Source: Mobula hypostoma (taxonomy: Eukaryota). Taken from it: DNA of 64,000 bases. Both the position numbers and the translations under genes were made by a program. Below the pieces are notes generated by a model that was not told the DNA's origin, made no database searches, and worked only from the letters and a program-made list of their open reading frames with translations. This document shows positions 5,386 to 59,253 of the stretch, piece after piece. The DNA lies in assembly GCF_963921235.1 (NCBI RefSeq), contig NC_086097.1, positions 99,760,001-99,824,000 of the forward strand. Reading direction: 5' to 3'. Within the stretch, counting starts at the first letter, position 1. Each line of letters starts with the position of its first letter.

Positions 5386-5386
<1 letters not shown>

Positions 5387-5425
<39 letters not shown>
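5387..5425. repeat. (TG)n microsatellite at the Hero/ERV junction
   Basis: About 19 perfect TG units. Confidence 0.97.
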
Positions 5426-5429
<4 letters not shown>

Positions 5430-6660
5430 ATGTGAATGTATACAAGTGGCGGTCATCATCTACAGGTAAGGAGCGCCATGAGCTTGTAACACAGGAAATA
5501 CGAGAGCTAGAAGAGGAGAAGAGGTTAACTAAAACAGCTGGCCTGGCCAAACAAGGGGCTTGGACCTGGTGGGAAAGTGTTGAACAACAACATCTATCTT
5601 GGAATGTTCTGTGGCAGATGGAACCACTCCGCATTTCTTTTCTACGCAGAGCAGTGTACGATCTGCTCCCAACTCCTGCCAAAATCAGCACCTGGTATGA
5701 AGATAAGACAGACAGGTGTGCTGCTTGTGGCGAGAAGGGAACACTTCAACATATTTTGAGTGCATGCAGAGTCAATCTTTCCAGCAGCATGTACACTTGG
5801 AGACATTACAACGTTCTCAAAGTTGTAACAGAAGCGGTTGAGCAGAGAGTACTGCAGCACAACTTATCTCATGCCCCTTGCTGCCCAGAACATCGCATAT
5901 TGATTGTGAAAGAAGGCTCCAAGTAAAGGGTGTACAGCGCAGGCTCACGATCAAGCTTACTTTCTTCGGCCAATGATTGGTGTGTCAAGGCCGACCTGGA
6001 CGGGAAAGGCAGTGTCCCGGGGCAAATAGCTTTCACCACATTGCGTCCAGATATATTCGTATGGTCTGACACCAGTAGAGAAGTGGTTATTGGTGAACTC
6101 ACAGTCCCCTGGGAAGACAACATTGATGAAGCCCATGAGCGCAAGTTAACCAAATATGCAGAATTAAGATCAGAGTGCAGAGACAGAGGGTGGAAGGTCT
6201 CATGCTATCCATTCGAATTAGGCTGCCGTGGGTTTATTGCGTTCACTTTCCAGAAGTAGCTGCGTGACCTTGGCTTCACTAGAAGAGAGATCAAGTCAAC
6301 TAGCAGGGCTGTAGCTGAGGTAGCAGAGAGAGGATCAGCATGGGTGTGGACCAAGTATGTCCAGAGGGGCAGATAGTCAGACAGTGTATACATATCTCGC
6401 AAATCCTTCAGTGGTTGCATAGATACCTGAAGAGCAGACTATCTGTTGGATGGAAGTGACCAACAACTCTGATAGAGGCAGATGCCAAGTTTTTAAGCTC
6501 ACCAGTGGGAGGTGGTGCTTTAGTACTGCTGGCCCACCACCTCGAGGGAGTCTTGATCATAAGCGGGCCGAAACTCCTGAAGACAGGTGGCAGATCAACT
6601 GATGATCCCACTGGTGATAGCACAGGACAGTTAACATCTTAGTCCACCTGTATTTTTTAA
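5426..6660 (+). mobile_element. 5'-truncated R2-group non-LTR retrotransposon (Hero-like) with restriction-like endonuclease
   Basis: CCHC finger CAACGEKGTLQHILSAC and RLE motif RPDIFVWS...IGELTVPWE...ERKLTKY. One reading frame interrupted by only two stops (5924, 6257), ending about 6375, then a 3' UTR. Confidence 0.88.
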
Positions 6661-7035
6661 CTCTATATTTACTTGCCTGCCCTCACTGCAGCATAGAGCT
6701 TCTGTCAGGGCCACCAGTTCCCCCACCTGAGCTGAGCAGCCCCTGGCAGTGCTCCTGAAGCTAATTCTTCATCCGTTTCCTTCACCACAGCCCTCCAGTC
6801 GCGGCTTCCGAGACTCATCTATAAAATTTTCCCCTGCTTCCCCTTCCGCAGCCGTTTCCTTCACACCGATATATCCTTCCCACTCTACTTCCATCTGGCT
6901 CTCGTGTGCCTCCCTCTCTGTTAGGATGGTGCTCCTGTGATTCATCCCAGTGCCCCTAACTGTTGTTACTACTGATTTGTATCGGGGTTGAGAACCACCT
7001 CCCAATCTGCCCCTCTGCTGCCAGTGACTGCTCTC

Positions 7036-7570
7036 GCTCGCTCGCTTTAGGTCGCATTTGGAAATTCCAGTTGGCGGACAATTTCCCTCCACGCCGCTCT
7101 GACATATTGGGAAATGATGTACTGGGCAGGTTACAGCTGTGGTTTGTCTTTGCCTACTGCCGAGTGAGTTTAAAGAGATCACCACCTCTTGCAGTGGATG
7201 TCCAGGACGTTTAAGTGTCTTGTCGTGCTGTTAGTGCTCCACCAGCTCCTGCTGGCCTGCCTTCTTGACCATTGGACCATTAATCAGTCTCCTCCGCTCA
7301 ATCTGCCGGGGCCGGACTTCACACGCTGGGACAGGCAGATCCCCTCCCTCTCCGGGGGTTGAAGACCCATCGGCTACTCTCACCTGGTTTGGCCCTTCTG
7401 CCGAGATGGTTTACCGGGGTGTAGCCGCTGCGCGTGTTACAGCTACTTGGAGCCACAGGTGAGAGCTGAGCGCCAGGTGGGGACCAAAGGTAGACGAGCT
7501 GCCCTGAGAAAGGGTACGGCAGCCCCCCCCCACCAGAGGTGCTACCCCTCCCTAGACACCCCATACACCC
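7036..7570 (-). mobile_element. 535-bp non-coding retroposon (probably RTE-mobilised) inserted in ERV A pol
   Basis: Perfect 11-bp target site duplication TGACTGCTCTC at 7025-7035 and 7571-7581. Short (GCGA)n tail. Pol-like sequence resumes on both sides. Confidence 0.8.
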
Positions 7571-10429
7571 TGACTGCTCTCAGCCTTCCTGTATTGATGA
7601 ATTCTACAATGGAATGGGCTGTGTGTGTGGTACGTGTTGTGCCACCATGGCAACGTGTTCGCTTACTCACACTGCCCACTCGGCGCAGTCTAAAGCTGCT
7701 ACACAGCGGGGATGTCCTGCAGCAACGGGTGTCCGTTTCGTTGAATAATAGGCCGCTGGCCTCCTCGCTGCGCCATGGACCTGCATCACTACTACGTTGT
7801 GGTGCCCTCCCTCATTGCTGCAATATCGGTGAAAGGGGCGAGCCGCATCCGGTAATCCTCGGGTGGGTGTAGAGCCCAGGGCTTTCTTGATCGCTGTAAA
7901 AGCCTTTTCCTCATCTGGCCCCCATCTCACTTCCTCCAGCGGAGGCTTCCCTCCTTTAACCCTTTAATCGGGGCCACTAGTGCTGAGAACCCTGGTATGA
8001 AGGTACGGCAGGAATTAAATAGACCCTTACCTTCCTCACTCCCCTTGTGTTGGTGGGCAGGGCATGAAGCTGATTGCCGATCGTCCGTCATCTGACAGGT
8101 CCTTCCTTCCCCGGGAAATGGCACAGCCTAGGTACTGTAGTTTGCTTTCCTCTCCGAGCCTTGTGTGGGCTGATTTTAAACCCCTCATCTCGCAGTATCT
8201 CCATAACACTGGCCATCGCCCCTAAATGACCTGCTTCATCTTCCGAAGCAATCAGTAAATCAAATTACATATAGTAAGATGGTTGACCGGTACGGTGTCA
8301 AATCGAGCTTTTCCGAAGTCTGCGCCACCCTTATGAAAAATAGCCGGGCTATTGTGGAACCCCTGGGGGAGTCTTGTCCACGTATACTGCTGCCCACCCG
8401 GGTGAAGGCAACTCGGTCTTGGGATTCAGGTGCTAAGGGGAGCCCCCAGAACCGATTAGCGATGTCCAGGACTGAAAATAAGCGTTATGTTCTGGAGATT
8501 CAAGATTGTTGCAGGGCTCGCCACGATGGGATACAATCTCGGCTTGGTCTTATTAAGGGCGGTATAGCCTATTGTTAATGGATGTGATCCACTGGGCTTC
8601 TTTACTGGCCGTATAGGCGAGTTAGTAGTTGCCGCAGTTTCTCTGAGTATTCCCGGGTGTTTTTATAGGGTACTGCTTATAGGGCGAATACAGACCCTCC
8701 TCTGTTGTAACTGGGGTTATCTTTACTCGGTCACAATCTTGCTTGTGTGTAGCCCACACCGCTGGGAACTGCTGACAAAGTAACCCATAGACACCATCCT
8801 GGCTCCAGTCTCTGGTGAAACCCAATTTCCCTCGGGATCAATAAAGTATATCTATCTATCGGGGCAGTTGCGATCTAGGTTGTGTATTCTGTTGGTTGTA
8901 CACATTCCCGACTTGTCCATATTATTTCTCCCTTTCCCGAATCTATAACAGCTCCTGCTTCCCTTAGGATGTCTATTCCGGGGATAGTGCCCTCATTATT
9001 TGGACATACCCAGAAATACACTGGAAGCTGCACTCCCCCGATTTCTAGTATTTGCGACTCGCTTCTTTCTGCTTTTACCGTTTTCCCTCCTATACCCCTG
9101 AAATAACTGGCCTGTCCGGTTGTTGGCAAGGGTAAGTCTGTTATTGATACCCATGCCCTTGTGTCCACTCACATATTGCATTGCCGGCCCCCTAACAATG
9201 TAGTTGTGTATATCCGCGGGTCACCAGCGCTGGCAGTGGGGGCCACCACCAGATCTTTTTCTGCCCAAGAAGCCGTCTTCATTAGCTCGTCTGCCGTGAC
9301 TTTCGCCTGCTTTTTTTCTCTCTCCTTTTTGGACAATGCCTCCAACCATGTCCCGATAGGCTGAGGCATATCAACTCCTTTACTATTTTATACCTGGTCC
9401 GGCAGTCCTTTGCCCTGGTCGTTGGCAAACCAAGCAAACCCTCTGCCAAGTCACAGCAGCTGCATCCACCATCGCCACTTTACAATTTCTCTTGCACTTC
9501 CTTCGGTCTAGCTCACTGGCCCAGCAAACTATCGCGGTCAACCCCACCGCAATCCCTAAATCCAAAACTTCCCGCTGGGCTGAGCTCAGGCTCTTCCTCA
9601 GCATTTTCAGGAAGACTTGATCGTCCCTCTCTGGATTATCCAACCCGGAACACTCGGCATTTAAATTCTGCATGATCCATGGCTTTTTGAATCATTGCCA
9701 TTATCGTTCCCCAGTCACTGCCTCACCTCCCCTTTAAAAGAGCGATACCTTTCTTCATTGTTGGCGTTCCCGGTCCCCCGGGCTATACTGTCCCCCATAT
9801 TCCTCGGGCACTTCACCAACATCTGTAAACATCTGGTGAATTTCAGCCATTTCCTCAAGCTTACGACAGAATTCTGAATTCCCACGTTCGACTTTAAGTG
9901 AGGGCAACTCTGACAAAGTGCCCTGTTTCTCCCTGGGGGGTGAAGGGCTTATGAATGGTCTTAATCAGAGTCACGGGCTGTTTCAGATCATCAGGGTTCT
10001 TGACCTGATGTTGCCTGACCTCAATAGGTGCCATCGCGACAGGAATATCTGGGTAAAACCTCTCTCTGAAATACCTCCACATCAATGTCCACACTACGCA
10101 AAATATAAATGATGGGTATCAGATAAACAGTACATACTTAAAACAACGAAGTATGGGCTCCGCAATCTGCCACTTCTGAGCACCTGAACTGATGATGCCT
10201 GCTGTATTCCTTTGCATCACACTCGCAAAACGGTTAATTAGTATGAATGGACAGGCCCCGTCTACTTCCTACCCTGCTATTCTCAAGCTTTTGTCAACCT
10301 TTAATTCCCAGATTCATTTTTCTTCTACAGGCACCACCTGAGTAATAACAGACGCAACAAAAAAAAATAAAAATAAAAAATAAGATCTTCCCCCGTATCT
10401 TTTGGCTTCTGCATAGAAGACTACGCTGA

Positions 10430-16715: not shown

Positions 16716-17156
16716 GGCACAAGGTGCCATTTCAAGAAGGTAACATCTATCCGTATTAATAAATAAATCAAAGATCCCCACCATCCAGACCGTGGATCGG
16801 ACAGGAGGCATAGAAACCCAAAACCCCACACCACCAGGTTCAAGAACAGCTACTTCCCCGCCACCTTCTGGCCCTTGAATCTACCTGCTCTACCCTAATT
16901 ACTACCCCAACAAACCAGCTCACTCTGAGACCGACTTTGTTTATCTTAGAACCACTCGTGCTCTCTGGAATAATTGACGTTTCAGTGCATGTCTTTGCTG
17001 TGAATGCGGCAATGGTGTCTGTGATGCTGTGCATACATGTAGTTGCTCATGTGACAATAAACTTGGCTTTGACATCCAGAAACATCCACTGGGCTCCTGC
17101 GCCCTGGATAAATTCATGGTTTTCCTGCGAGGACGCCACCTGGCAGAGTATCTCAC

Positions 17157-17342
17157 CTTCACGTCCTGCCAGTAGGGACCTCCTCGAGTGAACATGAAAT
17201 AGTTGTAGAGGTCATTCTTGTGATGGGTGTAGTACATGCCGCTGCTAATGTTCACCATCCAGGGCCTCCCGTCTCCTCTCACACGGAGGTGCAGCGTGTT
17301 AAAGTTCGACAGGTCATAGTACTTCTTCGTGTCAAAGGGCCC
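17157..17342 (-). CDS. NDUFAF1: NDUFAF1 coding exon 2
   Basis: 186 nt, CAG/GT boundaries, GPFDTKKYYDLSNFNTLHLRVRGDGRPWMVN...TRGGPYWQDVK (CIA30 domain). Confidence 0.96.
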
Positions 17343-18040
17343 CTGCAAGACGGACCAGGTGAGCAGAGAATGGCGAGATGGTGGGAAGGGCGGCGAGAGG
17401 CGGGAGTAGGGTCACAAGGGGGAAGGAGAACTGACCTTGAGCGGCCTGGACCTCAGGGTGCAGTAGCCGCTGTAGCGGGTCTCGCCATCCCGGGGCGGCT
17501 CGGTGCTCAGGTGTCCGGACACCAAGGCCGAGCACCCGTTGCTGCCGACACCGAGCCGCACGCTGCTGCGGCCGCCGATCTCCTGGTCGCTGGACACAAC
17601 CCAGTGCCGCAGGCTGTCGACGCCGCGGAACTGCCAGACGACGCGATTCTGCTCCAGCAGCTCCTGGCGGAGGGAGCGGCCGTCGGGGCCCCGCACTCTC
17701 GCCGCCATCTCCTCCCACGTCAGGCTCCATTGCCGCCGCACCGACTCCACGCCCTCCCGCCAGTCCCAGCGCAGCCACTTCCAGGGCGGCGGCTTGTCCA
17801 CTGGAGCACCCGGCCTCCGGTAGCCGCGACTCAGCCCGGTCGCCGCCGCCGCCCGACCGCGAACCCCGAGCCGGAGGCAGGCCGCCATGCGCGGGCCGGG
17901 AAAGCAGAGCGGAAGGGCGGGGTTTAGCGGCGTGGGCGGGACTTGCCGGGTGACGGACACATGAGAAACCAATGGGAAGGGAGAGGTTTAGAGTCAGGTG
18001 CGCTATCCGCCGTGTATCGGTCTGTCATGTGACTACGAGT
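17330..18040 (-). promoter_or_regulatory. NDUFAF1: CpG island and compact NDUFAF1 promoter
   Basis: CpG-rich. GC boxes GGGCGG near 17916 and 17933, CCGGAA ETS-like site near 17897, CCAAT at 17969. Confidence 0.75.
17436..17888 (-). CDS. NDUFAF1: NDUFAF1 coding exon 1
   Basis: ATG at 17888. Arg-rich presequence-like MAACLRLGVRGRAAAATGLSRGYRRPG, then VWQFRG...WVVSSDQEIGGRS...PRDGETRYSGYC. Donor AAG/GTCAG. All four exons splice in frame (855 nt). Confidence 0.93.
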
Positions 18041-42587: not shown

Positions 42588-43251
42588 CTAAACAGAGAAA
42601 AAACAAATCAGGTTCAGTAATGGTTGGGACCAAAGCACGATTAGACTAGAGTAGCTTAGCTTAGCTTATTGTCATACATGGAAAGGCACTGAAATTCCTT
42701 GTTCTGCGGAAGTTCATAGAATGCACAGTAATAACAAATATTGGAAAGTGGAAAGTAGCAGAATGGTGCAAAGACTACAGAGTACTCACAGATTAGCACA
42801 AATTTCAAATAATATATAAACTGCACATGGCACAAGGACAACTTTATTCTGTCATTATTAAGAATCATGGTGTGAAATGGAAGTCTAGACTGAAGAGTTA
42901 GTACCCGATGAAGTCAAAATCCAGGGTACCTTTTCCACTCTTGACCATCAGCTCTAAGCTTTGTATATTTTAATTTGCTATCACATCCATTCCTGTTTTT
43001 TTTCACCCTATAAGTAAGGATGCAATTTTTAGTGCCAGCTCCACCAGATTAGATTGCTGGTAATCATTTTACAGAATAACCTTTAGCTTACAGGCTAAGA
43101 TTTCCGTATTATTAGCCTGCATTATATTTAATCCAGAGAAGAAACCTGCTGTTTAGTACACTGAACAAGAAAAGGCAATTTCAACACAAACACACACAGA
43201 ACAGGAGTAGATACGCACAATGCAATTTCACCGTTTTTATTACTGCCTCAC

Positions 43252-43570
43252 CTAGTTTCAGGCTCAGTCCAATTTTAGGCCGCTGCTCTTCTTGCTGTTG
43301 ATCAGGAGAGTTCTCATGTGGAATGATAATGCCACATGGGGATTCATCGGCAGGTGTGTTTGGTGTGGCATTTCCACTTGCTGATGAAACAGATGGGACG
43401 GAACTGATAGGGCGCAAGGTGGGTTTAAGGCAGGGTTTCTGCTCAGGTTCTTCATCCTCTTCCACTCGGCGTTCCTCTTTCTCTGGCTTTTCTTCCTCCT
43501 CCTCCTCCTCTTCTGATTCTGGCTCTTGTTTAATTGGCTGCTGCCGCCGCCTTTCTGCCTCCTGTTCCAT
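43252..43570 (-). CDS. RBM25: RBM25 exon
   Basis: 319 nt, MEQEAERRRQ...SSASGNATPNTPADESPCGIIIPHENSPD...KIGLSLKL. Confidence 0.96.
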
Positions 43571-44523
43571 CTGTTGGTGATAATAAACAACTGGCATTAG
43601 TTCCACTACAAACAGAGTTCAAAGCCCAGGATAAAAAATTTCTGATGACAGATCATCAGCCTAAATAATTTTGTTTTCCTTTTCACAGATGCTGCCTGAC
43701 CTGCAAAGTCTTTTGTTTGAAGAATTTTATTAGACAACTCAACAGCCTCGGTGGCTGTTACTTACTGATACTTATAATCATAATGCTATGACAACATAGA
43801 TTCTGTCAAATATCCAGCAATCTATTTACCAATGATGGTACAAAACAAAGCTTCCCCTATAGCAGCCTGATACATCAATTTATATCATATTCTGTCCAGA
43901 AAAGCTATAACAAAAGAGGAAATAATGGTTGGTGGATTGAATTACTTGCTTCTAAGTATTAACGTACTTTTAGATTTTTTAATCTTTGTTTCAATGAGGA
44001 GCCAAACATTTTGTTCTAATTTTACTCTGTTCATAATTTCAATGTACGAAAAACATTTTCCCTCGAAGTTAATAATGCCTTCCTTCCATTTCAGTATAAT
44101 AAATTATGCCTCGTCATGAAATATAATGCTATAATGGTGACTCAGATTTAAATAAAATACAATGTATGTTAACAAATTCACATATCAAGTATAAAGATAG
44201 TGTGCTTGTTGGTTATGAAGTGGTACCAGAGCAGTGTCATGCACAGGCATCTTCCTTGAGATGGAACTTCAGTAATAGACAGTAAATCTAAAAAAGATTA
44301 CTTTGCTGCATTTGTAAACTGATTCTGTTGTCCAGTACAAGTTAACAGACAAATGTAGCATCGTGATATTTTTATATGACTAATGGGGTACATAACTAGA
44401 CTATTGCTACACTATCACCTGTAATATAAAACTCCTTCCAGTAACTATCTAATAACATGCATTTAAATGCAACTACAACGTTGTTTTTAAATCATTGAAA
44501 AAAATCTTCAAGTCACGATTTAC

Positions 44524-44674
44524 CCTCTGAAGCTCTGCATCAGGATCTGGGTGTCCTTCTGCCAACAAACGTTGCCGAATTTCCTCATGTTCCTCCTTCT
44601 CTCGCTTGCGATCTCTTTCATCTGCTTCCATTTCTTTCTCTCGATCTCTTAAGCGTTTCTGCAAAGCACTTCCT
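44524..44674 (-). CDS. RBM25: RBM25 exon
   Basis: 151 nt, GSALQKRLRDREKEMEADERDR...LLAEGHPDPDAELQR. Confidence 0.96.
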
Positions 44675-44767
44675 CTGAAATTAAGACAAGAGTTTTGTTC
44701 AAGTACATAAACTGAAGATGAGAAAATATACTGTGGATATTTCAGAAGATCTAAACACAAGAATCAC

Positions 44768-44841
44768 CTGTAATATTTTGGATCATCTCGATCATCATCA
44801 TAGTCTTCTAAAAACTCCTTCAGTCTTTTTGCCTCTTTTGT
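44768..44841 (-). CDS. RBM25: RBM25 exon
   Basis: 74 nt, TKEAKRLKEFLEDYDDDRDDPKYYR. Confidence 0.95.
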
Positions 44842-46006
44842 CTGTGGATAAAGGTACATTTAAATTACTATTTATAGCTGAAGACTTACCATTAAATAAA
44901 CTCCACCAGTAGAATAACCTGCAGCATAGCTTTTTTCCTTACTCAAAGGATGTGGGCTTTGCAGGCTGAGCCAGCATTCCCCAGATGCCCTCGCTAAGAT
45001 GATGGTGAACCACCGCAGTTCTATAGTAGGGACATACCTACAATGCAATTATGGAGGCAGTACCAGGATTTAGCCTCGGTGATGGTTTAGGTTGGTCGCC
45101 TGGATGTCAGTTATGTGCTCTATCTTGTCATGAATGTGGCTGTGACTTTTATTTTTTTTTTGAGTTTGGTTGGCCATGCACTCGCCCACACAGGTGGAGG
45201 ATTGTCCATCACACCAGTTTGTGGCTCGTGAATGATGCGAAGATTTTGAGATATGACTGAATGAGCACTTTTCACAGCCTAGATGAGTTCTGGTCAATGG
45301 TGACACCCCAAAATGTTGATGGAACAGGTACTCAGTGACAGTATTGACACTTGAGTATCAAGACTAGATGTTTGAATTCTCTTGTGTTGGAAGTAATTGC
45401 AGAGGTAACAAAAAAAGCCATCGAACAGTTTAATTTCCTAACTTAGAGACTTTGTGTAGTGTGTACAATTCCTTAATCACATTGATAACCACAAACCACA
45501 GCTATTGTTTATACTGTGCTTTGAATATTGCCGCAGTATATAGAGTCATTCATAAATCTATCCAAAATTCCCATTTTGCTATTTCATCTCCTGAAGAGAT
45601 TATTCTCAAACTTTCCTACACAAATCCATAATGATTATATTCCCAAGTACTAGTCAGTCAAGCCTTCAATCTACTCACTATATGAGGAACAAGATTGCTG
45701 GAATATACGACACCTGAACTAGCAAATTTCTAGCCTCAGTGTAAAGATGTCATAGCAGCACAGCAGGTACAGCTGCTATTTCACAGTACCAAAGACCCAC
45801 TTCAATCTTCCACTTCAGGTTTCCTGCCATGCCTCAAAGGTGCATCGGGTGGTAGGTGAATTGGCTACTCTACGTTGCCGTTAGAAGGCAGTAGTGGTAG
45901 AGTTCTTCCCATTCAATCTCTCCTCCTGAGGTAACTCCTGATTGCAGGAATTAATGTATGAAATCATGCTACTGTATTCACTCTGAAAGAAAAGCACCCT
46001 TTAAAG

Positions 46007-47122
46007 CAGCGGTCCCCAACCACCGGGCCGCGAGGGAACGATATGATTTGGCGATATGAGTCAGCTGCACCTTTCCTCATTCCCTGTCACGCCCACTGTT
46101 GAGCTTGAACACACGTGAGGTCATTACCCGCGCGTCATCCGTGTCAGAGCGGGAAGGAGATCAACTCCTCGAGCTTGCAAATGACGGCGGGCTGAAAAGT
46201 ATGTTTGACATAACATCTCTGCCGGCATTCTGGATCAAAGTCAAGGGCGAATATCCTGAGATAGCCACGGAAGCACTGAAAACATTGCTTCCATTTCCAA
46301 CTTATCTCTGCGATGAATGTAACAAAAACTAAATTGCGGAATAGACTGGACATAAGGAAGCCCCTTCGAGTATCGCTGTCTCCCATCACCCCTCGATGGG
46401 ACTGTCTTGTTGCAGGGAAACGAGCCCAGGGCTCCCACTGATACAGCGATATTGGTGCGTCGCAATGGTTTTATATGTTCATACGGGGAAAATATGTGCT
46501 GTGTGTTTAATATCCAAATGTTACTTAAAATGTGATGATGCTATTGACTTATATAACCATATAACAATTACAGCACGGAAACAGGCCATCTCGGCACTTC
46601 TAGGCCGTACCGAACGCTACTCTCACCTAGTCCCACCGACCTGCACTCAGCCCATAACCCTCCATTCCTTTCCTGTCCATATACCTATCCAATTTTACTT
46701 TAAATGATAATATCGAACCTGCTTCTGCCACTTCTACTGGAAGTTCGTTCAACACTTAACTTCAAGCTCCCCTGATAATTAACTTATCACTATATTCATG
46801 CGAGGAAAATATGCGCTGTGTGTTTAATATTAAATTCGTTAGATAAACCCTTTTAGAAATGAAATTGAGTGTATTAGCCACTTATCACCTATATTCCGGT
46901 CATGATTAACACCCCCCCGCCCCCCCCCACCACCGTACAGAATCGCCAAAAAGTATTTGCAGGGGAAAAAAAAAATCGGCAGGTCACAATGCGCATGCGC
47001 ACTGGTGCCCGCGCAAGGCTTCATCGTCATTGTGGGTAAACTCAACGTATTTGACTACTGGTCCGCAAGAATATTGTCAATATTAAACCGGTCCGCAGTG
47101 CAAAGAAGGTTGGGGACCCCTG
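46007..47122 (+). mobile_element. Non-autonomous hAT (Charlie-type) transposon containing a CR1 tail
   Basis: TIRs CAGCGGTCCCCAAC / GTTGGGGACCCCTG; TSD CTTTAAAG / ATTTAAAG. Dimerisation-domain remnant FWIKVKGEYPEIATEALKTLLPFPTYLC. Confidence 0.9.
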
Positions 47123-48070
47123 ATTTAAAGGGAAAAACTGCAAATAATACTCTTGGAAAAGGCCCCAAAAATCTCTTGACATCTACAGGCAAGAATTTCT
47201 TATTCTGCCATTTCAACACACTTGCAATAAAAGTAAATATCTAACAAATATTTACATGTTAACTTTGTCATATATAAATGACACCCAAGTCTCTCTAAAA
47301 ATATTTAATATTTTGTCACAAATGTGCAAGATTTAATATTTTAAATTTCTCAGCCAAAATAAATAACTTTGCATTTCCACTTTCTTTCCTCCTCAATCGG
47401 ACCTCATTCTTTTGTACTTTGTCTTCCTAAAAGCTTCATTAGCAGGTAACTAGAAAATTATAATCAATCTCTTCCTCCAGTTCTCAATATAGGTTGTAAA
47501 TTCCCTTCCCTTCAAAGAAACCTTATAATCTATTTTCAATAAAGGTCCTTCAGTTAACAATTTGAATAGCTTTATATTAATTTTCATTGACAATATTTTT
47601 TAAATGGTTCCCATTATTATCTATTATGACAACCTGAGACCAAGTTTCACAAATCGTTCTAGCCACCTCATCATACATATTTAATTGACTTTGTTTAAAT
47701 ACAAGTGCAAGATTGAATTCCATTTTACCCAGGAATGACTGCAAAACTGGTCTGCACATTAGCTGATTTTATGACATACTGTTCAGGCAGTCTCAAATGC
47801 ATTCAGCAATCTCATTTTCTGAACTACCTTTGCTGGTTTGATTTATTCAGTCTTGCATTGTGAATTTCCCATTGAATGTACAATTTGACAAGGGCAACTA
47901 TGGATTTGACATTTCACTTGGAGTACCTCAACCCAAAGGTCAAGTCTTAAAATTCATCAGGAGAGAAGCAAGGAACAGCTGAAGTGAAATTAGGTACAAA
48001 TCTACATCATCTAAATCCAGGATTTTTGAAAGGAGGCCTTTGTGTAAGTTAGGCATCAACAGGCAATAGT

Positions 48071-48330
48071 AACACAAACACAAGGAAACCTGCAGATGCT
48101 GGAAACTCAACACACAAAAAATGCTGATGAATGCAACAGGTCAGGCAGCATCTCTAGGAAGAGGTACAGTCGACATTTCGGGCCGGGACCCTTTGTCAGG
48201 ACTAACTAAAAGGAGAGAGAGTAAGAGGTCTGAAAGTGGGAGGGGGGGGGATCCGAAATGATAGGAGAAGACAGGAGGGGAGGGGTGGATCTAAGAGCTG
48301 GAGAAGGGAGAGGATCACGGGACGGGAAGC
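48071..48330 (-). mobile_element. Penelope tail fragment
   Basis: Aligns with 18052-18340; hammerhead core mutated (CTGACAA). Confidence 0.8.
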
Positions 48331-48673
48331 CAGGGAAGAATAGTAACACAAACTGTTTTCGATTTACCATGGTCTGTAAATTTAAAAAAAATAGAATTAT
48401 GACTTGTCTTTTTCAGTTATCAAAATATCTTATAACTTTTAAATGGATATATATGTTTCAGCCTAGGTTAACAATAATTTGGATCCAAATCCTAGCGAGT
48501 CAATGCGGTTTTATAGACTTACCTTTAAATTTAAATATAGAAATGGGATATAGTAACGTGTTTAAATTGTGACCAAGAAACGAGAACAGAAATTATGAAA
48601 CTTTAAAACAATCATATGCAGACGCAGAATCTTTAATAAGATTTTGGTTTGTGTTTCAGTACATTACACTTAC

Positions 48674-48763
48674 CATTTCTCTTCTTCTTTCTTCCTCCCT
48701 TTCAGCTTCTTTTTCATAGTCTCTGGCCTTCTTCCGTTCTCTTATTTCCCAATTTTTAAGACG
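48674..48763 (-). CDS. RBM25: RBM25 exon
   Basis: 90 nt, RLKNWEIRERKKARDYEKEAEREEERRREM. Confidence 0.95.
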
Positions 48764-49142
48764 CTATATAAAAAGGCCAAATATTAATTAAACAAATCCA
48801 AATTTAATATAACACAGCAGCTTCAAATCCAATGGCAAAATTCAGTACTAACTCGAGTGGTTCAGCAAACAGTACAAACCATCAATGTTATTATGCATTT
48901 AGAATTTTGAAATCAACTTAAATTACACAAATCCTTTAAAATAACTTCTAGTATCCTTTCTAGATGGAGATTAAGAAATCAAATTCTGAGAGCACAAGAT
49001 GCCCCAACTTTGAGCACCAGTCAGAACATCAAACAATGCCAAGATCAAATACACCCAGACAAATTAAACCTGTATATGTTCCTCTAGTTTATCTCCAACC
49101 TGACTAAGTTAGCAATACTTTTCATCTAGTTCAGCTTCCCAC

Positions 49143-49257
49143 CTCTTGGTATGCATTTTCTTTCTCACGGAGCTTCCTTTCAAGTTTCCGACGTTCATAC
49201 ATTTCTTCTTCATCTTCTTCCCTATCCCTTTTCTTCTCCTTTTCTCGGCTTTTCTCT
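49143..49257 (-). CDS. RBM25: RBM25 exon
   Basis: 115 nt, EKSREKEKKRDREEDEEEMYERRKLERKLREKENAYQE. Confidence 0.95.
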
Positions 49258-49344
49258 CTGCAAATTTCCATTAAATGTAAGAATCTGATCAGAAGTAATG
49301 TTAGCATGGTCTTATGGCTGAAAACTACAACATTATATAAACAG

Positions 49345-49843
49345 CCTAGCACAAAAAGGGTGCAGAGGAGATTTATAAGGATGTTGCCTGGATTGGGAAG
49401 CATGCCTTATGAGAATAGGTTGAGTGCACTCGGCCTTTTTTCCTTGGAGCGACAGAGGATGGGAGGTGACCTGATAGAGGTGTATACGATGACAAGAGGC
49501 ATTGATCGTGTGGATAGTCAGAGGCTTTTTCCCAGGGCTGAAATAGCTAATACGAGAGGGCACAGTTTTAAGGTGCTTAGAAGTAGGTACAGAGATATCA
49601 GGGGTAAGTTATTTATTTATTTATTTTTAAACGCCGAGTGGTGAGTGTGTGGAATGGGCTGCCGGCGATGGTGGTGGAGGAGGATATGATAGGGTCTTTT
49701 AAGAGACTCCTGGAATGGTACACAGAGCTCAGAAAGGTAGAGGGCTATGGGTAACCCTAAGTAATTTCTAAGGTAAGGACATGTTCAGCACAGCTTTGTG
49801 GGCCGAAGGGCCTGTATTGTGCTGTAGGTTTTCTATGTTTCTA
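49345..49843 (+). mobile_element. CR1 LINE 3' fragment
   Basis: RVQRRFIRMLPGL...GDLIEVY; TTCTATGTTTCTA tail. Confidence 0.88.
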
Positions 49844-50350
49844 AATAACCAACTCTGGCAGCAAGGTACAATTATAACAGATGCCCAAGAAACTTGGGAG
49901 AAATTATCTCCATATTCTGGCAGCAGAAAAAGCGAGAGTGAAGAGGAAATGCGTAGTGTGTATGCAGAGCATGAAAATAAACGGGCCAAGCAGTAAAAGT
50001 AGTAAGATACAAAGATCAGGATGGAAAAGTCGATAGTACCCACAGTTTATTTTCTTATCCACACCCCCCCCCCCCCGGGTGAAGCAATGTCTTTTATGTC
50101 AATGCTTTTATGCCATAGTAAACTTGTACTTTGCTTTGGTAGAAGCTGATTTTCCATTATCTTATTTCAAGATCATGCAACTGACACCAAATCTTCAAAA
50201 AGTCACTACTCTTTCTAGCAACTATTTGAAAAAATAAATATTAGAATATAACCAGGGACGGTGAAAATGTATCATGAAAGATTATTTTCAGGCAAGTGAA
50301 TGATTAAGATATAACTTAGTGAAACAGGAACCATTTCCTAAAATAATCAC

Positions 50351-50685
50351 CTGGATCTACTTCGATCCTTGCTTCTCTCCCGGTCCCGGCTCCTTTCTCT
50401 CTCTTTATCCCGCTCTCGATCCCTTTCTCGGTCGCGTTCTCTTTCCTTATCCTTCGTTCTCTCACGATCTCTATCCCGGTCTCGCTCACGATCCCGATCC
50501 CGCTCACGCTCTCGTTCCCGCTCCCGTTCCCGCTCACGCTCCCGTTCCCTCTCCTTTTCTTTCTCGCGTTCCTTCTCTCTTTCACGCCTTTCTCTTTCTC
50601 GCTCACGTTCTTTCTCTCTATCTCTTCTCTCCTTTTCAACTTCTTGTCTTTCTTTTTCTCGTCGCCCCTTTTCTTCTTCTAGTTT
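50351..50685 (-). CDS. RBM25: RBM25 exon (RE/RD-rich region)
   Basis: 335 nt, KLEEEKGRREKERQEVEK then RE/RD dipeptide repeats; TAG/GT boundaries; frame consistent with neighbours. Confidence 0.94.
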
Positions 50686-53116
50686 CTAAAAATTAAAAAA
50701 ATTCTTACTCATTAGAGATATTTACAATATTGCAATGCTACAAAAATGTATTAATCTCAAGATCATAAAAAAGGATGTTGACATAAAGTTTGTCAACTGT
50801 ATCAGTAACACACAACTTTATATAATTATTTAAATACAGATAAAACAATCAAAATTTTATTTAAAAAAACATTATGCCAGATTTCCTACTAGAAAATGAA
50901 CAGACTACAATCCATCCTTTGAAGTGATTTGACTTACAGTGGTCTGCTAGGACTTGGATCGTCAAGACTGGATTAACATTGCCTAAAAGCTAAATGTCTG
51001 GGAAGAGCAAGTAAATTGTTCACAAGTAATAGAATAACCATGTTGTCAGCACCAGCAGATGCCAACACATTAGAAAAAGCAACTTTTACAATATACAAGA
51101 TGTTACATACAATAAATCATCCCTAGTTTACAATTAAACAGTAAATTATTAAACAAACATTATGCAACAATTGAAAAAGTATTAAACAACTGTAAACACA
51201 GGTTCTTACCTCAAAACTCTTGTTGGCGATCGGCAATCAATGACTATCAAATCAGCAAACAATAATGAAAAGGAAGCTTTTACAACACATCAATTTATCC
51301 AATCAGTATGAGGCAATAAGAAAATATAACTATCACCACCACCTACTGCTGGATATACTGATGTAACTGCCATAACTGATGGTAGAAGAGGTGCAAAATA
51401 GATTTCAAATATGCCAAGTGTATTAAGCGCAGATGCACATATCTAGCTTGAGAAATGTTTTAATGTATTAAGATGTATTGAAATAGGGCAAATATGCATG
51501 CCATCAAATTCCCAGGCTATTCTATATTGTTAAAACTGTTGTTACTACAAGACCACCCCACCTATATACAATACTTAAATATCACATAAAGGGCTATTTC
51601 TTCAACAGAAAGGAATTCAATTAATGAGTTACAGGATTTGTACAAACTTACCTCTTCTAAAGGCTACTAGCTTTACTATTACCTCTTCAAGTAGTAAAAC
51701 ACTCTTTTACATACTTACAAAATTCTGAAATCCCTTATAGCTGAATACATTTTCTTGGGACAAGCTTGACATAACTAGGGAGAAATATTAAAAGGTAGGT
51801 CTAAAAGCTTTATATCACCATACCTTTAATATTTTAATTCAGTTTTCAATGCAATTAACACTCCTATCATTATTTAAACTTAAAAAATTAACTGACTTAC
51901 AAATGATTCCAACTACTTTGATGTTAATGGATATTTTTCAATGCAAGCTGCCTTAGATTTAAAAAGAAAGGGAATGAATGAAAATAATAAATTTAAATAG
52001 TTTAATTTAAATGTCAAATATAAACTAAAAGCAAAGGAGAAAGGAGGGAAAAGATAAGCTTATTGGGTCTTACCTCATATTCTTCAGACTCATCAGTACT
52101 CTAAATGGACACCCCCTGTTAAACTGAACTTTTGACAGCAACAGTCTGAAAGACTGTAGCAAATACATTACAATACAAGAGTCAAAACATGCAAAGGTTG
52201 ACTGTACACATATTAAAAGTTCCCAATATTGAAAATAATTGCATTAAACCAGAAGTAGGGAGATAAACAGATTATTCAAGATTGTGAAAGCAAACGACTT
52301 TAAAGAATGACCAGCTGCACCTTTGCATATTTCTCTAAGGGGGCATCCATGAATTTTATAAAAAAGAAACGGAAGCTCATACTTACGTCCTATCCATGCA
52401 TTTTCACAAGTTCTGAGTTCATCTTGCTTTAGTCACCATATGATCTCTATCATAATGGTGGGGGTCAATGAATAGATTAGCTTTAAGGGCATGTACATTA
52501 TTCCATGCATGTTATATGGTATCTGTTTTGGATTTCCCTACCCCATTTTCTTCTTCTACGCCTAACGATTCAATAGTACCACTTACAGTCCACTAGGCAA
52601 TTGCTCGAAGGCAAGGTTCTAACTTTGTTCTTCCTTCTCAAATTTGCATTCTTAAGTTGCTAGATTTAATTCCTGTACTATTAAGTTTGGTTATTAAATG
52701 CACCACAAGCAATAACCTGACAATGCATTAAAACTTATCAACATCCACTGATCAACTGATAACTCAAAATGGTTTTAGTACTAATACTGAATTCCAATAA
52801 CTAAATAAAAACAAAAAAATGTATCCCCCTTACAATTCATTTCTAAGTACACCTGAGAAAATCAGATTATACGTGCAAATATACAGTATGGATGAATTTA
52901 TTTTGTCCTTCTTTGTAATTCTAACTTAAAATGGGCCCAAAGTAATATTCATCCATATATTAATGACTGAAAGGGATAGTCACTGACTACCTCAATTTAA
53001 CAATGATAATCTTACTGATAGCAAATGTTTTAAAGACCTATCAGCTTTCTAAAAAAAGCAAGTGTGTGTAGATCTTGTGCTCATATTTATAGAAATAAAA
53101 TAAATTTTGGTACTAC

Positions 53117-53200
53117 CTTGTGAGTATCTCTGAATTTGCTAATTTCTCTAGAAATTAGGTCTCGTTTATCCTCTTCCATTTCCATAGCACTTATATCATC
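53117..53200 (-). CDS. RBM25: RBM25 exon
   Basis: 84 nt, DDISAMEMEEDKRDLISREISKFRDTHK. Confidence 0.95.
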
Positions 53201-54259
53201 CTGTAGAACAAAGCAATAGTTGCTAACTAAGTCATTTTAAAATTTCCTTTAATATAAAAACAATATGATTGGATTAAGCTGGAAGTACACACAGTGCCTA
53301 TAAAAAGTATCTATCCCCCATTGGAAGTTCTTTTATGTTTTATTGTTTTACAATACTGAATCTCAGTGGATGTAATTTGGCTTTTTTTTGGACACTGATC
53401 AAATACTCTTTCGTGTCAAAGTGAAAACAGACCCCTACAAAGTGATCTAAATTAATTACAAATATAAAACACAAAATAATTGATTGCATATGTATTCACC
53501 TCCTTTAATATCTAATACCAAATCACTGGTGCAGCCAATTGGTTTTAGAAGTCATATAATTAGTTAAATGGAGATCACCTGTGTAGTATTAAATAATCCA
53601 GCTGCAGGTGAGTCAGTATCCTGGCAAAAACTACACCATGAAGACAAAAGAATACTCCAAGCAACACCGTGAAGAGGTTAGTGAAAAGCACAAGTCAGGA
53701 GATGGATACAATAAAATTTTCAAGTCACCGAATATCCCTTGGAGTACAGTTAAGCCAATCATCAAGAAATGGAAAGAACATGACACAGCTGTAAATCTGC
53801 CTAGAGCTCAAAAACTGAATTACTGTGCAAAAAGAGGACTAGTGAGGGAGGCCACCAAGAGACCTATAATAACTCTAGAGGAATTACAAGCTTCAGTAGC
53901 TGAGATGGGAGAAACTGCACATACAACTGCTGACCAGCTGCCTCACCAGTTACAGCTTTATGGGAGAGTGGCAAAGAGAAAGCCACTGTTGAAAAAAAAA
54001 CTCACATGAAATCTCAGCTAGAGTTTGCCAGAAAGCACATGAGAGACTCTGAAGTCTAGAAGGTTCTATGGTTTGATGGAACCAAAGTTGAGCTTTTTGA
54101 CCATCAGGCTAAACACTACGTTTGGCGTAAGCCAAACACCACACATTATAAAAAACACACCACTCCCAATTTGAAGCATGGTGGTGGCTGCATCATGCTG
54201 CAGGGATGCTTCACTGCAGAAGGCCCTGGAAGGCTTGTGAAGGTAGAGGGTAAAATGAT

Positions 54260-55688
54260 TGCTGTGTTGTTTAAAAAAGGCTCTAAAAGTAATTCGGGAA
54301 ATTATAGACAGTTAAGTTTGATGTTGGTATTAGGTAAATTATTGGAAGGAGTACTGAGAGATAGGATCTACAAGTATTTGGATAGACAGGGACTTATTAG
54401 GGAGAGTCAACATGGCTTTGTGCATGGTAGGTCATGTTTAACCAATCTATGAAGAGTTTTTCGAGGTGGTTACCAGGAAAGTGAATGAAGGGAAGGCAGT
54501 GGATGTTGTCTACATGGACTTCAGTAAGGCCTTTGACAATGTCCCACATGGGAGGTTAGTTAGGAAAATTCAGTCGCTAGGTAACATGGAGAAGTAGTAA
54601 ATTGGATTAGACATTGGCTCATTGGAAGAAGCCAGAGAGTGGTAGTAGAGAATTGCTTCTCCGAGTGGAGGCCTGTGACTAGCGGTGTGCCACAGGGATC
54701 AGTGCTGGGTCCATTGTTATTTGTCATCTATATCAAAGATCTGGATGATAATGTGGTAAATTGGATCAGCAAATTTGCTGATGATACATAAACTGGAGGT
54801 GTAGTGGACAGTGAGAAAGGTTTTCAAAGCTTGCAGAGGGATTTGGACCAGCTGGAAAAATGGTCTGATGGAGTTTAATATAGACAAGTGTGAAGTATTG
54901 CACATTGGAAGGACAAACCAAGGTAGAACATACAAGGTAAATGGTAGGGCACTGAGGAGTGCAGTGGAACAGAGGGATCCGGGAATACAGATACAAAATT
55001 CCCTAAAAGTGGCGTCACAGGTAGATAGGGTCATAAAGACAGCTTTTGGTACATTGGCCTTTATAAATCAAAGTATTGAGTACAAGAGTTGGAATGTTAT
55101 GGTGAGGTTGTATAAGGCATTGGTGAGGCCAAATTTGGAGTACTGTGTGCAGTTTTGGTCACCAAATTACAGGAAGGATATTAATAAGGTTGAAAGAGTG
55201 CAGAGAAGGATTACAAGGATGTCGCCGGGATTGAGAAACTGAGTTACAGAGAAAGGTTGAATAGGTTAGGACTTTATTCCCTGGAGCGTAGAAGAATGAG
55301 GGGAAATTTGATAGAGGTGTATAAAATTATGATGGGTATAGATAGAGTGAATGCAAGCAGGCTTTTTCCACTGAGGCTAGGGAGAAAAAAAAACAGAGGA
55401 CATGGGTTAAGGGTGAGGGGGGAAAAGTTTAAAGGGAATATTGGGGTGGGGGGGGGCTTCTTCACACAGAGAGTGGTGGGAGTGTGAAATGAGCTGCCAG
55501 ATGAAGTGGTAAATACGGGCTCACTTACAACATTTAAGAAAAACTTGGGACAGGTACATGGATAAGAGGTGTATGGAGGGATATGATCCAGGTGCAGGTC
55601 AGTGGGACTAGGCAGAAAAATGGTTCCGCACAGCCAAGAAGGGCCAAAAGACCTGTTTCTGTGCTGTAATGTTCTATGGTTCTATGGA
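54260..55688 (+). mobile_element. CR1 LINE, 5' truncated, nested in Tc1
   Basis: GNYRQLSL, SQHGF, DFSKAFD, FADD, LVRPNLEYCVQFWSP; (TTCTATGG)n tail. Confidence 0.92.
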
Positions 55689-56042
55689 CTGCAGCAAAAT
55701 CCTGGAGGAAAACCTGATGCAGTCTGCAAGAGAACTATGACTTGGAAGAAGATTTGTTTCCAGCAAGACAATAACCCCAAGCATAAAGCCAAGATACACA
55801 GGAATGGCTTAAGAACAACAAAGTTATTTTCCTGGAGTGGCTAGGTCAGAATCCAGAACTCAATCCAACTGAGAATTTCTGGCTGGACTTGAAATGGCTG
55901 TTCACTCATGATCCCCGTGCAATCTGACAGAGCTTGAGCAGTTTTGTAAAGAATGGGGAAAAACTGCAGTGTCCAGATGTGCAAAGCTGATAGAGGCCTA
56001 TGCACACAGACTCAAGGGTGTAATTGCTGCCAAAGATGCATT

Positions 56043-57155
56043 ATTCCAAAACGAAGGAGCTGCCCTCTTCCTTCAAAGGGGCTTCCCTTCTTCTGCCATC
56101 AACGCTGTTCTCAACTGCATCTCTTCCATTTCGCAAACATCTACCCTTACCCCATCCTCCCACCGCAGATAGGGTTCCTCTTGTCCTCACTTACCACCCT
56201 AACAGCCTCCGCATCTAGCACAGTATTCTCCGAAACTTCCACTATCTCCAACGGGATCCCACCACCAAGCACATCTCTCCCTCCCCACCCCCCTGCCACT
56301 TTCTGCTTTCCGCAGGGATTGCTCCCTACACAACTCCCTTTGTCCATTCGTCCTTCACCACTGATCTCCATCCTGGCACTTATCTTTGCAAGTGGAATAT
56401 GTGTAACACCTGCCCCTACACCACCTCCCTCACTAACATTCAGGGCTCCAAACAGTCCTTCCAAGTGAGGCAACACTTCACCTGTGAGTCTTTTGGGGTC
56501 ATATACTGTGTCTGGCACAGCCTCTTGTATAATCGGTGATACTCGACAGAGATTGGGAGACTGCTTCGCCAAGCCTGCCAGAAAAAGCTGGATCTCCCAA
56601 TGGCCACCCATTTTAATTCCACTGTCTCATTCCCATTCCGACATGTCAATCTATGGCCTCCTCTACTGTTGCGATGAGGCTACAGGAAGGCTGCAGGAGC
56701 AACTCCTTTTATTCCACCTGGGAAGCCTCCGACCTGAAGGTATGAACATTGATTTCTCCAACTTCTGGTAATGCCCCCCCCTTCACCATTCCCCATCCCC
56801 TTTTCCCTCCCTCACCTTATATCTTTGCCTGCCGATCTCCTCCCCCTGGTGCTTCTCCCCCTTTTCTTCCTTCCATGGCCTTCTATCCTCTCCTATGGGA
56901 CTCCCCCTTCTCCAGCCTGTATCTCTCCCAAATATCAACTTCCCAGCTATTAGCTTCACCCCTCCCCCCTCCAGGTTTCACTCATCACTTTGTGCTTCCA
57001 CAGGCCCTCCCCCCCCCCCCCACCAACCTTCCAACTCTAACTCATCTTTTTTTTCTCCAGTCCTGCTGAAGGGTCTTGGCCCAAAACATGACTATACTCT
57101 TTTCCAAAGATGCTGTTTGGCCTACTGAGTTCCTCCAGCATTTTGTGCGTGTTGT
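56043..57155 (+). mobile_element. Penelope-like element, 5' truncated, nested in Tc1
   Basis: RVPLVLTYHP and IGDTRQRLGDCFA...GMNIDFSNF; aligns with 18052-19227. Confidence 0.88.
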
Positions 57156-59253
57156 CCACTAAATACTGACTTGAAGTGGGTGAATAATTATGCAATCAAT
57201 TATTTTGTTTTTAATAATCGTAATAATTTTAGACCAATTTGTAGAAATTTGTTTTCACTTTGAACCTGTGTCAAATAAAGCCAAATTAAATCCATTGTGA
57301 CCCAGTGCTGTAAAACAATAAAACATGGAAACTTCTGGTGGGGTGGGGTGGGGTGGGGGGGCTGGCGGAATATAGGTACTGTAGTATCCAATGATTAAGA
57401 AAAAGGTTTGAGGTGTTACTGGATGTTCACAGAACACTGGCAAATGCAGTAATGTGCATTTGAGGTATAGAAATTTGGTAATGGTAAGCATCCACTAATG
57501 CAAGGAAACCTGATATGACAATACATCTTTCTTTAAAAGTTAGGACAAAACTTGGCTGTAATTCCCCATGATCATCTTCAAATAGTGCCCTGAGAACTTT
57601 TAAATGCAACAAGAGTTTCAAAGACTCTGCTCAAGAGTCCTGGCAATGCATTTAAGTGCTAGCCTACATTAACTACTAACATGTCAGATTAAAATTAACA
57701 TGAAGAGGTACTGATGGACACGAGTTTTGTTAAAACATTAATGGATGGATATGTATGGATAAGCATTAATTGATGTATTTCCAGATTCCATTCCATTCAT
57801 GCCAGTAATGAGCATACATTCTCTCTAGTCTAATACTGTATTACATATTTTTATAATGCAGACTTAACAATTTGAATAATTACTTGCATTAACATCTGAA
57901 TTATGTCCACAACAGGATCTAATCTAAACTTTCCTGAAGTCTTAGCAAAGTTGAAAGTTAACTCTCATAGCTGAAAGTTAACTCTCATAGCTTCCTAATG
58001 CAATACCACTTATACTAGGATTATTTTCCTAACATTTTGCACAACCCAACCAAATGAAGTTAGTTATTGCACCATTCAATTCTTTAACCTCTTCTAATGT
58101 CCAAGAATAATTTACAGACCTTATTCTACTTAGATATTAACTTTTATAGTGTATTCATTTCTGATCTAATAACACTCCCAAACTCTCAGAAAAATAATAG
58201 ATGTAAACACATGACTGTTGGAGTTAACCACAGCTGTCACATTTAATCAAGCAGCTCTAGTACAAAAGTAGCTTGACAATGTTCAGTTCCTTAACCCTAT
58301 AATTTGCAGTTTTCAATACACAGACAAGTCTACACATGGCTATTACTTGCAGCTCCTTTCAAATGCACACTGTCACAAGATAAACTACATTTTTGATTTC
58401 CTTCTTCCATCTTTTAGCTTGCTTATCATCTCTCTTAAAGCTTTCATATCCATGTCATTATCATTTGAAATTTAACTAGTTGAAAGTTCAAATTAGTTTC
58501 ATGTAGAACAATAGTGGGACCTCAGCTTCCAAAATAACCAACTTCCAAATAGCCCTGGTCTACCCACCCCAGCCAATAGAAGCATCATTCTGTTAAATCT
58601 CAAAAACAAGTTCCAATAAAATTACCTTGCTTCAAAGCATGACAGGAATTATGTATCTAACCTTTAAGTCCCCCCTCATTGAGCAACTGCCCTAGTTCCA
58701 GAGGAATCAATCCAGTGAACCCATCTAGCATTCCTGTCACAAGCATATCTTTCCTTCGGTATGGAGATTAGCTCTGCATACATTGTTTCAGATGCAGGTC
58801 CCATGCAACTATAATATGAGAAATTTATGATTTTCCCCAATTCTCCAATTCCAGTGAAGGCCAATATACCATTTACCTTGCTAAACCTACCACTGAGTAC
58901 AAGGACGTACAGGTTCTTCTGAACACCACTTTTCAATTTTTGGTCATTTAACACAAAATGCACTGCTATTCTTCTATAAGAATTATTATTTGGGAAAAAA
59001 TTGCAACACTTATATTCAATGCCAATTCTCAGAGAGAGCTTTTTATTTAAACTATAAATCAACATTTCATCTATTGATTGAAACTATTAAAATTTCCATG
59101 ATATAATTGCCCTTACTTCAAAAAAGAAAAATATATCCTTATACCACTGTAACAAGCAGTCATCAATATTTTTGAACTTAGAACTTAATTTTATGTTAAT
59201 CATCAATTGAGAATTTAAAATAAAGGATATACAATATATCTACATTGAAATAC

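Follow-up and report, generated by a model that had tools for sequence, protein, structure and literature searches.

Intron 4 of SF3B1 is a long retained intron of a splicing-factor gene that carries several short non-coding cassettes, the decoys E4a-E4f, some of which are conserved in fish and which were proven as decoys in minigenes (PMC6097662). Cassettes that lie inside retained introns and supply competing splice sites are likewise described for OGT intron 4, ARGLU1 and SNRNP70, each with a known or proposed stimulus, O-GlcNAc in the case of OGT (PMC6097662, PMC12017769). Not every cassette of a retained intron takes part in retention, some being ordinary NMD exons (Parra et al. 2018, PMC6097662). 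A related system is formed by the LUC7 proteins: LUC7L2 and LUC7L promote right-handed and repress left-handed donors, LUC7L3 does the opposite, and LUC7L and LUC7L2 limit themselves through right-handed (poison) exons (PMC11842720). These exons, the PTC exon of LUC7L and AE2 of LUC7L2, are negative-regulatory exons of U1-auxiliary factor genes, with right-handed donors of balance +3, and donor swaps were used to test them (Kenny et al. 2025, PMC11842720). RBM25, a splicing factor associated with U1, has been reported as a tumour suppressor in AML (PMC6329799), and it co-purifies with all three LUC7 proteins (PMC8078730).

The window analysed here is a 64,000-nt stretch of the Mobula hypostoma genome (NC_086097.1, positions 99,760,001 to 99,824,000). 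RBM25 proteins match a minus-strand exon in it with up to 89% identity, and tblastn with gar and Xenopus RBM25 queries placed the coding exons of the gene from extended position 80627 down to 31418. Exons and introns carry what we take to be the human RBM25 numbers. Donors were scored by U1 pairing and by the published LUC7 balance score (PMC11842720). Intron 9 and its surroundings comprise:

53117 to 53200, minus strand: RBM25 exon 9, 84 nt, the upstream flank, found by tblastn with gar and Xenopus RBM25 and joined to exon 10 in retrocopies L044 and L046
53111 to 53119, minus strand: authentic exon 9 donor, AAG/GTAGTA, weak on its intron side; LUC7 balance -3, the lowest of the 15 donors scored
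50686 to 53116, minus strand: RBM25 intron 9, 2431 nt, with 11 sense GTAAG
50704, 50933, 51205, 51647, 51714, 51896, 52069, 52382, 52582, 52829 and 53011, minus strand: the GTAAG motifs (CTTAC on the plus strand)
50351 to 50685, minus strand: RBM25 exon 10 (RE repeat), the downstream flank, found by tblastn; contigs of four sequencing runs start at 50687

The intron runs from GT to AG in phase 0, has a GC content of 31.5% and, at 2431 nt, is longer than the 1 kb that marks the decoy class. Its boundaries were confirmed independently by spliced retrocopies in the same genome, which join exons 7 to 9 and 9 to 10. The 54-nt exon 8 of tetrapods, present at 2522-2575 in the bird-type locus L008, had no counterpart in window positions 53201-59253, and the retrocopies splice exon 7 straight to exon 9. 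Such dispersed spliced copies of RBM25 exons (L040, L041 and L043-L047) reach identities of 88-96%; exon 9 has 357 first-look copy candidates and exon 7 has 2387, of which 40 each were scored, and six of the seven retrocopies examined continue past exon 7 into exon 9, five of them clearly into exon 10. All seven lack intron and cassette sequence, which rules them out as the source of the cassette signal.

The first-pass annotation had described intron 9 as free of recognisable transposons. Compared with about 310 kb of other genome DNA the intron indeed gave no match and seven of ten other introns above 1 kb did, but the other three of the ten matched nothing either; freedom from repeats is a plausible reading of the sequence. 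A genome search with the whole intron, which skips common words, matched only the intron itself. Elsewhere in the window, a Tc1/Sleeping-Beauty-type transposase fragment adjoins a reverse-transcriptase fragment in intron 7 (53593-54449, plus strand), and a decayed LTR element with an integrase core and RNase H-like fragments lies at 4546-7963 on the minus strand. A CIA30 (NDUFAF1-type) domain at 16944-17987, minus strand, is divided between two ORFs in different frames that match the abutting profile halves 1-57 and 58-116, a split that reflects either a frameshift or a very short intron in the region of 17411-17445.

The annotation had further listed ten sense GTAAG motifs in intron 9. All ten are present, one of them at 52829 where the annotation had given 52830, and an eleventh, at 53011, had been overlooked; its counts of six GTAAGT, two GTAAGTAT and one GAG/GTAAGT were exact. 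The motif at 50704 falls in the 3' splice-site region. Against the 11 sense motifs there are none in antisense. Dinucleotide shuffles contained 2.83 ± 1.63 GTAAG, with 1 of 3000 reaching 11, and 1.09 GTAAGT, with 0 of 3000 reaching six; trinucleotide shuffles reached the GTAAG count in 1 of 1500 cases and the GTAAGT count in 6 of 1500. No 5-mer of the intron ranks above GTAAG (z 5.4), the two leading 6-mers resemble donors, and GTAAG density is higher here than in any other of the 16 introns scored. Not one of 290 control strand-windows of 2431 nt, all slightly GC-richer than intron 9, contained eight GTAAG or six GTAAGT. By shuffles and control windows alike, the excess of both motifs is real. 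As a side observation, intron 2 (L003, extended positions 78490-80519) has few repeat matches and holds four sense and three antisense GTAAG in 2030 nt, a count that is probably due to chance.

Whole U1-complementary sites gave a different picture. When 11-nt sites were scored against the 5' end of this genome's own U1, four had at least eight matches, against 2.3 expected; 183 of 1000 shuffles did as well, and these sites are therefore not enriched. This scoring rules out an abundance of strong U1 sites as the conserved trait. The U1 snRNA genes themselves include a near-identical cluster (G000 C12, 12.4-12.6 Mb; 42 matches were scored genome-wide).

A metagenome scan reduced 308 candidate stretches to three loci for comparison: L008, a bird-type RBM25 with the whole intron (3602 nt); L009, of teleost type, which ends before exon 10 and covers 3212 nt or more of the intron; and L010, which stops at the exon 9 donor and was left out of the intron comparison. 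Four blocks of intron 9 align to L008 in collinear order, whereas RBM25 introns 7, 10 and 11 each gave no aligned block. Conservation across species, on which the annotation's proposal depended, thus extends to both the bird-type and the teleost-type locus. Individual donors were assessed by their flanks, with GTAAG itself excluded and the best partner compared, uncorrected for its selection, with 300 random positions. The flanks of four of the 11 GTAAG match those of a bird GTAAG, with only 0 or 1 of 300 random positions as good, and the other seven have no alignable bird partner; in teleost L009 two GTAAG donors show a clear flank match and one a weak match. An acceptor lies upstream of each of the four bird-matched donors, and these pairs define the cassettes CE1, CE3, CE4 and CE2. 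Motif density itself is poorly kept: the bird intron has eight GTAAG against 4.3 expected (69/1000 shuffles) and the teleost five against 3.1 (203/1000), neither of them significant, and GTAAGT is mildly enriched (bird five against 1.6, 27/1000 shuffles; teleost four against 0.9, 20/1000). The annotation had pictured an intron packed with U1 sites; a decoy or poison module is supported, but the conserved unit is about four exons with acceptors and not motif density. In order of transcription, the features inside the intron are:

52897 to 52902, minus strand: AATAAA, a possible intronic polyadenylation signal, at intron +215 (bird +243, teleost +227)
52311 to 52510, minus strand: conserved block CE1, with branch-point-like motif, acceptor, cassette and donor, from alignment to L008 and L009
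52387 to 52446, minus strand: cassette CE1, 60 nt, donor GTAAGTAT at 52386
52184 to 52205, minus strand: conserved 22-mer upstream of CE3
52074 to 52145, minus strand: cassette CE3, 72 nt, in-frame stop at codon 9, donor GAG/GTAAGA at 52073
51652 to 51774, minus strand: candidate cassette with tandem donors, GTAAGTAT at 51718 and GAG/GTAAGT at 51651
51210 to 51243, minus strand: candidate cassette CE4, 34 nt, donor GAG/GTAAGA at 51209; flanks z 4.2, 1/300
50938 to 50997, minus strand: cassette CE2, 60 nt, donor ACT/GTAAGT at 50937; flanks 0/300; pyrimidine-rich acceptor

CE1, CE2 and CE3 are conserved to bird, and CE1 and CE3 also to teleost. The CE1 block is 86% identical to L008 over 204 nt (E 7e-60) and 77% identical to L009 over 164 nt (E 2e-28); identical in all three are 33 of 41 positions in the branch and acceptor region, 42 of the 60 in the cassette, 13 of the 15 at the donor and 13 of 65 downstream. 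The cassette is 60 nt long here, 62 nt in bird and 70 nt in teleost, and in all three it reads five codons and then a stop at codon 6; drift in length around a fixed stop fits a non-coding role. CE2 lies in a conserved block (50909-51028) that is 76% identical to L008 over 133 nt (E 2e-22), is 61 nt long in bird and has its stop at codon 5 in both species. In the region of CE3 two blocks align to L008, one of 38 nt (87%) and one of 22 nt (95%), and the flanks of the CE3 donor align to bird, where none of 300 random positions did as well, and to teleost, where 1 of 300 did; the bird counterpart is 68 nt long and frame-shifting. CE4 is weakly conserved, and its acceptor is not common to bird. 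Inclusion of CE1, CE2 or CE3 would lead to a premature stop, with nine junctions downstream of the start of exon 10. The tandem donors at 51718 and 51651 resemble a similarly spaced pair in bird, but the flanks, no better than chance (32/300), do not support orthology of the two pairs.

It is very improbable, and by these data largely refuted, that the blocks belong to some other element, such as a structured RNA or a DNA enhancer, or that chance produced the GTAAG excess and splicing noise the cassette joins. Seven of 11 motifs unconserved and a weak density in bird and teleost are what such an origin would give. However, conservation peaks on the splice signals and the motifs are split 11 to 0 between the strands; Rfam has no match in intron 9, and folding z lay between -0.35 and +0.89 in all seven blocks folded. 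The missing Rfam match and the folding scores near 0 also rule out a non-coding or structured RNA (snoRNA, miRNA or Rfam family).

The donor with which the cassettes would compete is itself conserved in its weakness. Its nine bases are identical in the bird-type L008. In two sets of read-through proteins from other vertebrates, no more than 2 of 34 and 0 of 24 allow +5G, so that the exon 9 donor is weak across vertebrates. On the balance score it reaches -3 here, -3 in bird and -2 in teleost. The CE1 donor scores +2 in all three species and the CE2 donor +2 here and +3 in bird; CE3 and CE4 score 0 here and -1 in bird. With right-handedness set at a balance of at least +2, CE1 and CE2 are right-handed, and CE3 and CE4 are not. 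The latter two are balanced or left-handed, and +5G is missing from 6 of the gene's 15 donors, which leaves two cassettes to carry the handedness contrast.

Records from other vertebrates speak to the use of these sites. Supplementary file 7 of PMC12017769 gives 2398 unannotated erythroblast cassettes within retained introns, from Parra et al.; two of its rows belong to the retained human RBM25 intron chr14:73099751-73103191 and give its candidate decoys, chr14:73100301-73100362 (62 nt) and chr14:73102362-73102467 (106 nt). The first lies at intron +551..+612 and bird CE1 at +554..+615, both being 62 nt long, and from this match in size and offset, in a comparison of coordinates, the human 62-nt cassette is very likely CE1. 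The second disagrees in length with CE2 (106 nt against 60/61 nt) and could not be matched to another block either. Elsewhere in the human gene, chr14:73111156-73111527 is presumably intron 15, with its counterpart at window positions 43252-42587. The same file lists it as a second retained RBM25 intron, with a 74-nt cassette (PMC12017769 Suppl. 7).

In a set of short RBM25 proteins, selected by a length filter with full-length proteins excluded, the exon 9-CE1 peptide ends 13 of the best 120 of 130 matches, and 34 continue past exon 9 with intron sequence; the CE1 ending recurs in 11 of the 55 cluster members listed. Annotations of the exon 9-CE1 join exist for mammals, a bird and teleosts, with named entries from chimpanzee, macaque, Boreoeutheria and a bird, and CE3 is used in one predicted yak protein (P0006). 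Among 32 Logan/ENA-only proteins with exons 4-7 spliced (source labels were assigned by hand), 22 continue into intron 9, five pass to CE1, two are canonical, three end or differ, and none stops after exon 7. As for the retention and cryptic junction reads that the annotation had asked for, intron read-through and cryptic-exon joins are on record in other vertebrates; none of the three refuting outcomes it had named came about.

These records can be read in more than one way. Classical poison exons might suffice, CE1 (and CE2 and CE3) being included under regulation and destroyed by NMD as in SR-protein genes or LUC7L, with retention as a by-product of the weak donor. The stop at an identical codon in three lineages, the annotated joins in mammals, a bird and teleosts, and an exon 9 donor without +5G across vertebrates, which alone would be enough for slow splicing, all suit that account. 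We consider it rather unlikely, given that read-through outnumbers CE1 by 22 to five among the spliced transcript-derived proteins, a ratio that NMD would also produce, and that several cassettes in one long retained intron reproduce the layout of SF3B1 intron 4, where cassettes promote retention (PMC6097662). Alternatively, the read-through proteins could stem from intronic polyadenylation or nascent RNA. If a short RBM25 that consists of the RRM only, without the RE/RD region and PWI, were the product, made by intronic polyadenylation or with CE1 as terminal exon, the U1-like sites would serve to suppress premature cleavage. The AATAAA at +215/+243/+227 in three species (p about 0.002 for this positional coincidence, found post hoc) and truncated isoforms of 260-330 aa annotated in many vertebrates point that way. 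The flanks of the AATAAA are, however, unconserved, the read-through tails vary freely among lineages, the sequencing run X2 contains nearly the whole intron and not merely its first 250 nt, and the CE1, CE2 and CE3 donors are conserved although terminal exons have no need of them, all of which makes such a short form improbable.

For this lineage we turned to sequencing runs, which are not recorded as RNA and whose RNA origin is presumed; the four that were aligned contain spliced contigs. Twenty-two runs contain 0.36-0.98 of the words of 50340-53210, a query that is 12.6% exonic, and X2, with 0.98 of the sampled query words, is the fullest of them. All four aligned runs, from four studies, have one contig that spans five junctions downstream and has its start at 50687, on the AG common to the end of exon 9 and the end of intron 9. 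As a weak hint, this break is the expected meeting point of spliced and retained paths and, equally weakly, a start at 50687 and not at 50685 argues against abundant CE1- or CE2-to-exon-10 joins in the four runs. Cassette junctions of this species were not seen in the same runs, aligned on 43100-52400. They have no depth over 50875-52118 and a last bin of 1.4 in one run, but hold 0.37-0.98 of the query words; the alignment may omit records, and we counted the gap neither way. In three related organisms with exon identity of 97-98% the word shares were 0.37-0.42, which implies, indirectly, a mean identity of about 96-97% for intron 9, about equal to the exons. Evidence for retention of intron 9 in this species is indirect but consistent.

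That intron 9 acts in some form as a decoy or poison brake on RBM25 is, in our judgement, highly probable. We lean towards decoy-driven retention with a minor poison output, a putative function, and on balance expect retention to be the main output of the brake. The proposed mechanism builds on parts that are established: the anatomy, its conservation, the stop codon in three species, the exon 9-CE1 joins elsewhere and the human retained-intron listing. The weak exon 9 donor and up to four conserved non-coding mini-exons would hold back removal of intron 9 and so limit full-length RBM25 mRNA. The cassettes would recruit U1 and U2 in competition with the exon 9 and exon 10 sites; most such engagements would lead to retention, with detention in the nucleus or decay, and the smaller part to inclusion of a cassette, through whose stop codon the transcript would be sent to NMD.

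What might set the balance is a U1 auxiliary module that includes RBM25. A rise in RBM25 or in LUC7L2/LUC7L would shift use from the left-handed exon 9 donor towards the right-handed donors of CE1 and CE2, and LUC7L3 would act in the opposite direction, closing a homeostatic loop. From a left-handed exon 9 donor facing right-handed cassette donors, LUC7L2 is predicted to lower RBM25 output. LUC7L2 is a gene lost in myeloid neoplasms. On LUC7L2 knockdown RBM25 mRNA rose 1.9-fold at gene level (logFC +0.93, FDR 7.7e-5; PMC8078730 suppl. file 5), and on LUC7L knockdown it was unchanged (logFC -0.11, FDR 0.76; PMC8078730). The rise is one gene-level value among many changed genes and may be an indirect effect. 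No splicing rows for RBM25 were found in the supplements of PMC8078730, and the RBM25-knockdown supplement of PMC6329799, the only one of its kind searched, showed no row for splicing of RBM25 itself. We offer LUC7/RBM25 as a tentative candidate for the sensor of intron 9. The narrower idea, that intron 9 is a candidate sensor of the LUC7L2/LUC7L-to-LUC7L3 ratio as old as the jawed vertebrates, is more doubtful still, and direct feedback by RBM25 on intron 9 is as plausible as LUC7-ratio sensing. RBM25 is reportedly an inclusion-promoting factor, as Carlson is said to have found in 2017.

The relevant bases at this locus are narrowed down to one weak donor and four cassettes that jawed vertebrates have kept; the locus also offers a sharp and inexpensive way to test whether the handedness of the 5' splice site is read in decoy-driven retention. 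If the model is true, the sensor converts the composition of U1 auxiliary factors into RBM25 supply, LUC7 cross-regulation would extend from paralogues to a binding partner and would explain the rise of RBM25 mRNA on LUC7L2 depletion, and antisense oligonucleotides that block CE1 or CE2 would be a way to raise RBM25.

In the literature searched, which left out subscription journals, we found no paper that describes this RBM25 intron or self-regulation of RBM25. Intron 9 goes unmentioned in the accessible portions of PMC7733475, PMC10999515, PMC9808567, PMC12952242, PMC7534427, PMC9250932, PMC12868714, PMC12307810 and PMC6203201, and is absent from the searched supplements of PMC6097662 (four of five files), PMC11842720 (two files), PMC6329799 and PMC8078730. 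The splicing tables of Carlson 2017, Jourdain 2021 and further supplements may already list the event, and very likely the human element already exists as a candidate-list row and an annotated isoform.

Set beside the known systems, intron 9 shares with SF3B1 intron 4 the long retained intron of a splicing-factor gene and the several short non-coding cassettes and, having the sequence-level features of that class, may work in the same way. The SF3B1 decoys have their proof in minigenes (PMC6097662) and the RBM25 cassettes are known here from sequence; unlike SF3B1, as far as the accessible parts of that source go, the RBM25 cassettes are conserved as far as a cartilaginous fish, at 76-86% identity to the bird-type locus. 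The human candidate decoys concern the same gene, where they are rows among 2398 candidates in a source whose accessible parts leave RBM25 undiscussed (PMC12017769). With the LUC7L and LUC7L2 exons CE1 and CE2 have in common a right-handed donor in a putative negative-regulatory exon of a U1-auxiliary factor gene; those exons regulate LUC7 paralogues (PMC11842720), whereas CE1 and CE2 score +2 here and would have a LUC7 partner, RBM25, as their target. OGT, ARGLU1 and SNRNP70 show the same arrangement of a cassette with competing splice sites inside a retained intron, and differ in that no stimulus is known for RBM25 (PMC6097662, PMC12017769). Intron 9 of RBM25 adds a new and clearly delimited case to a known class, that of decoy/poison exons; the principle itself is not new.
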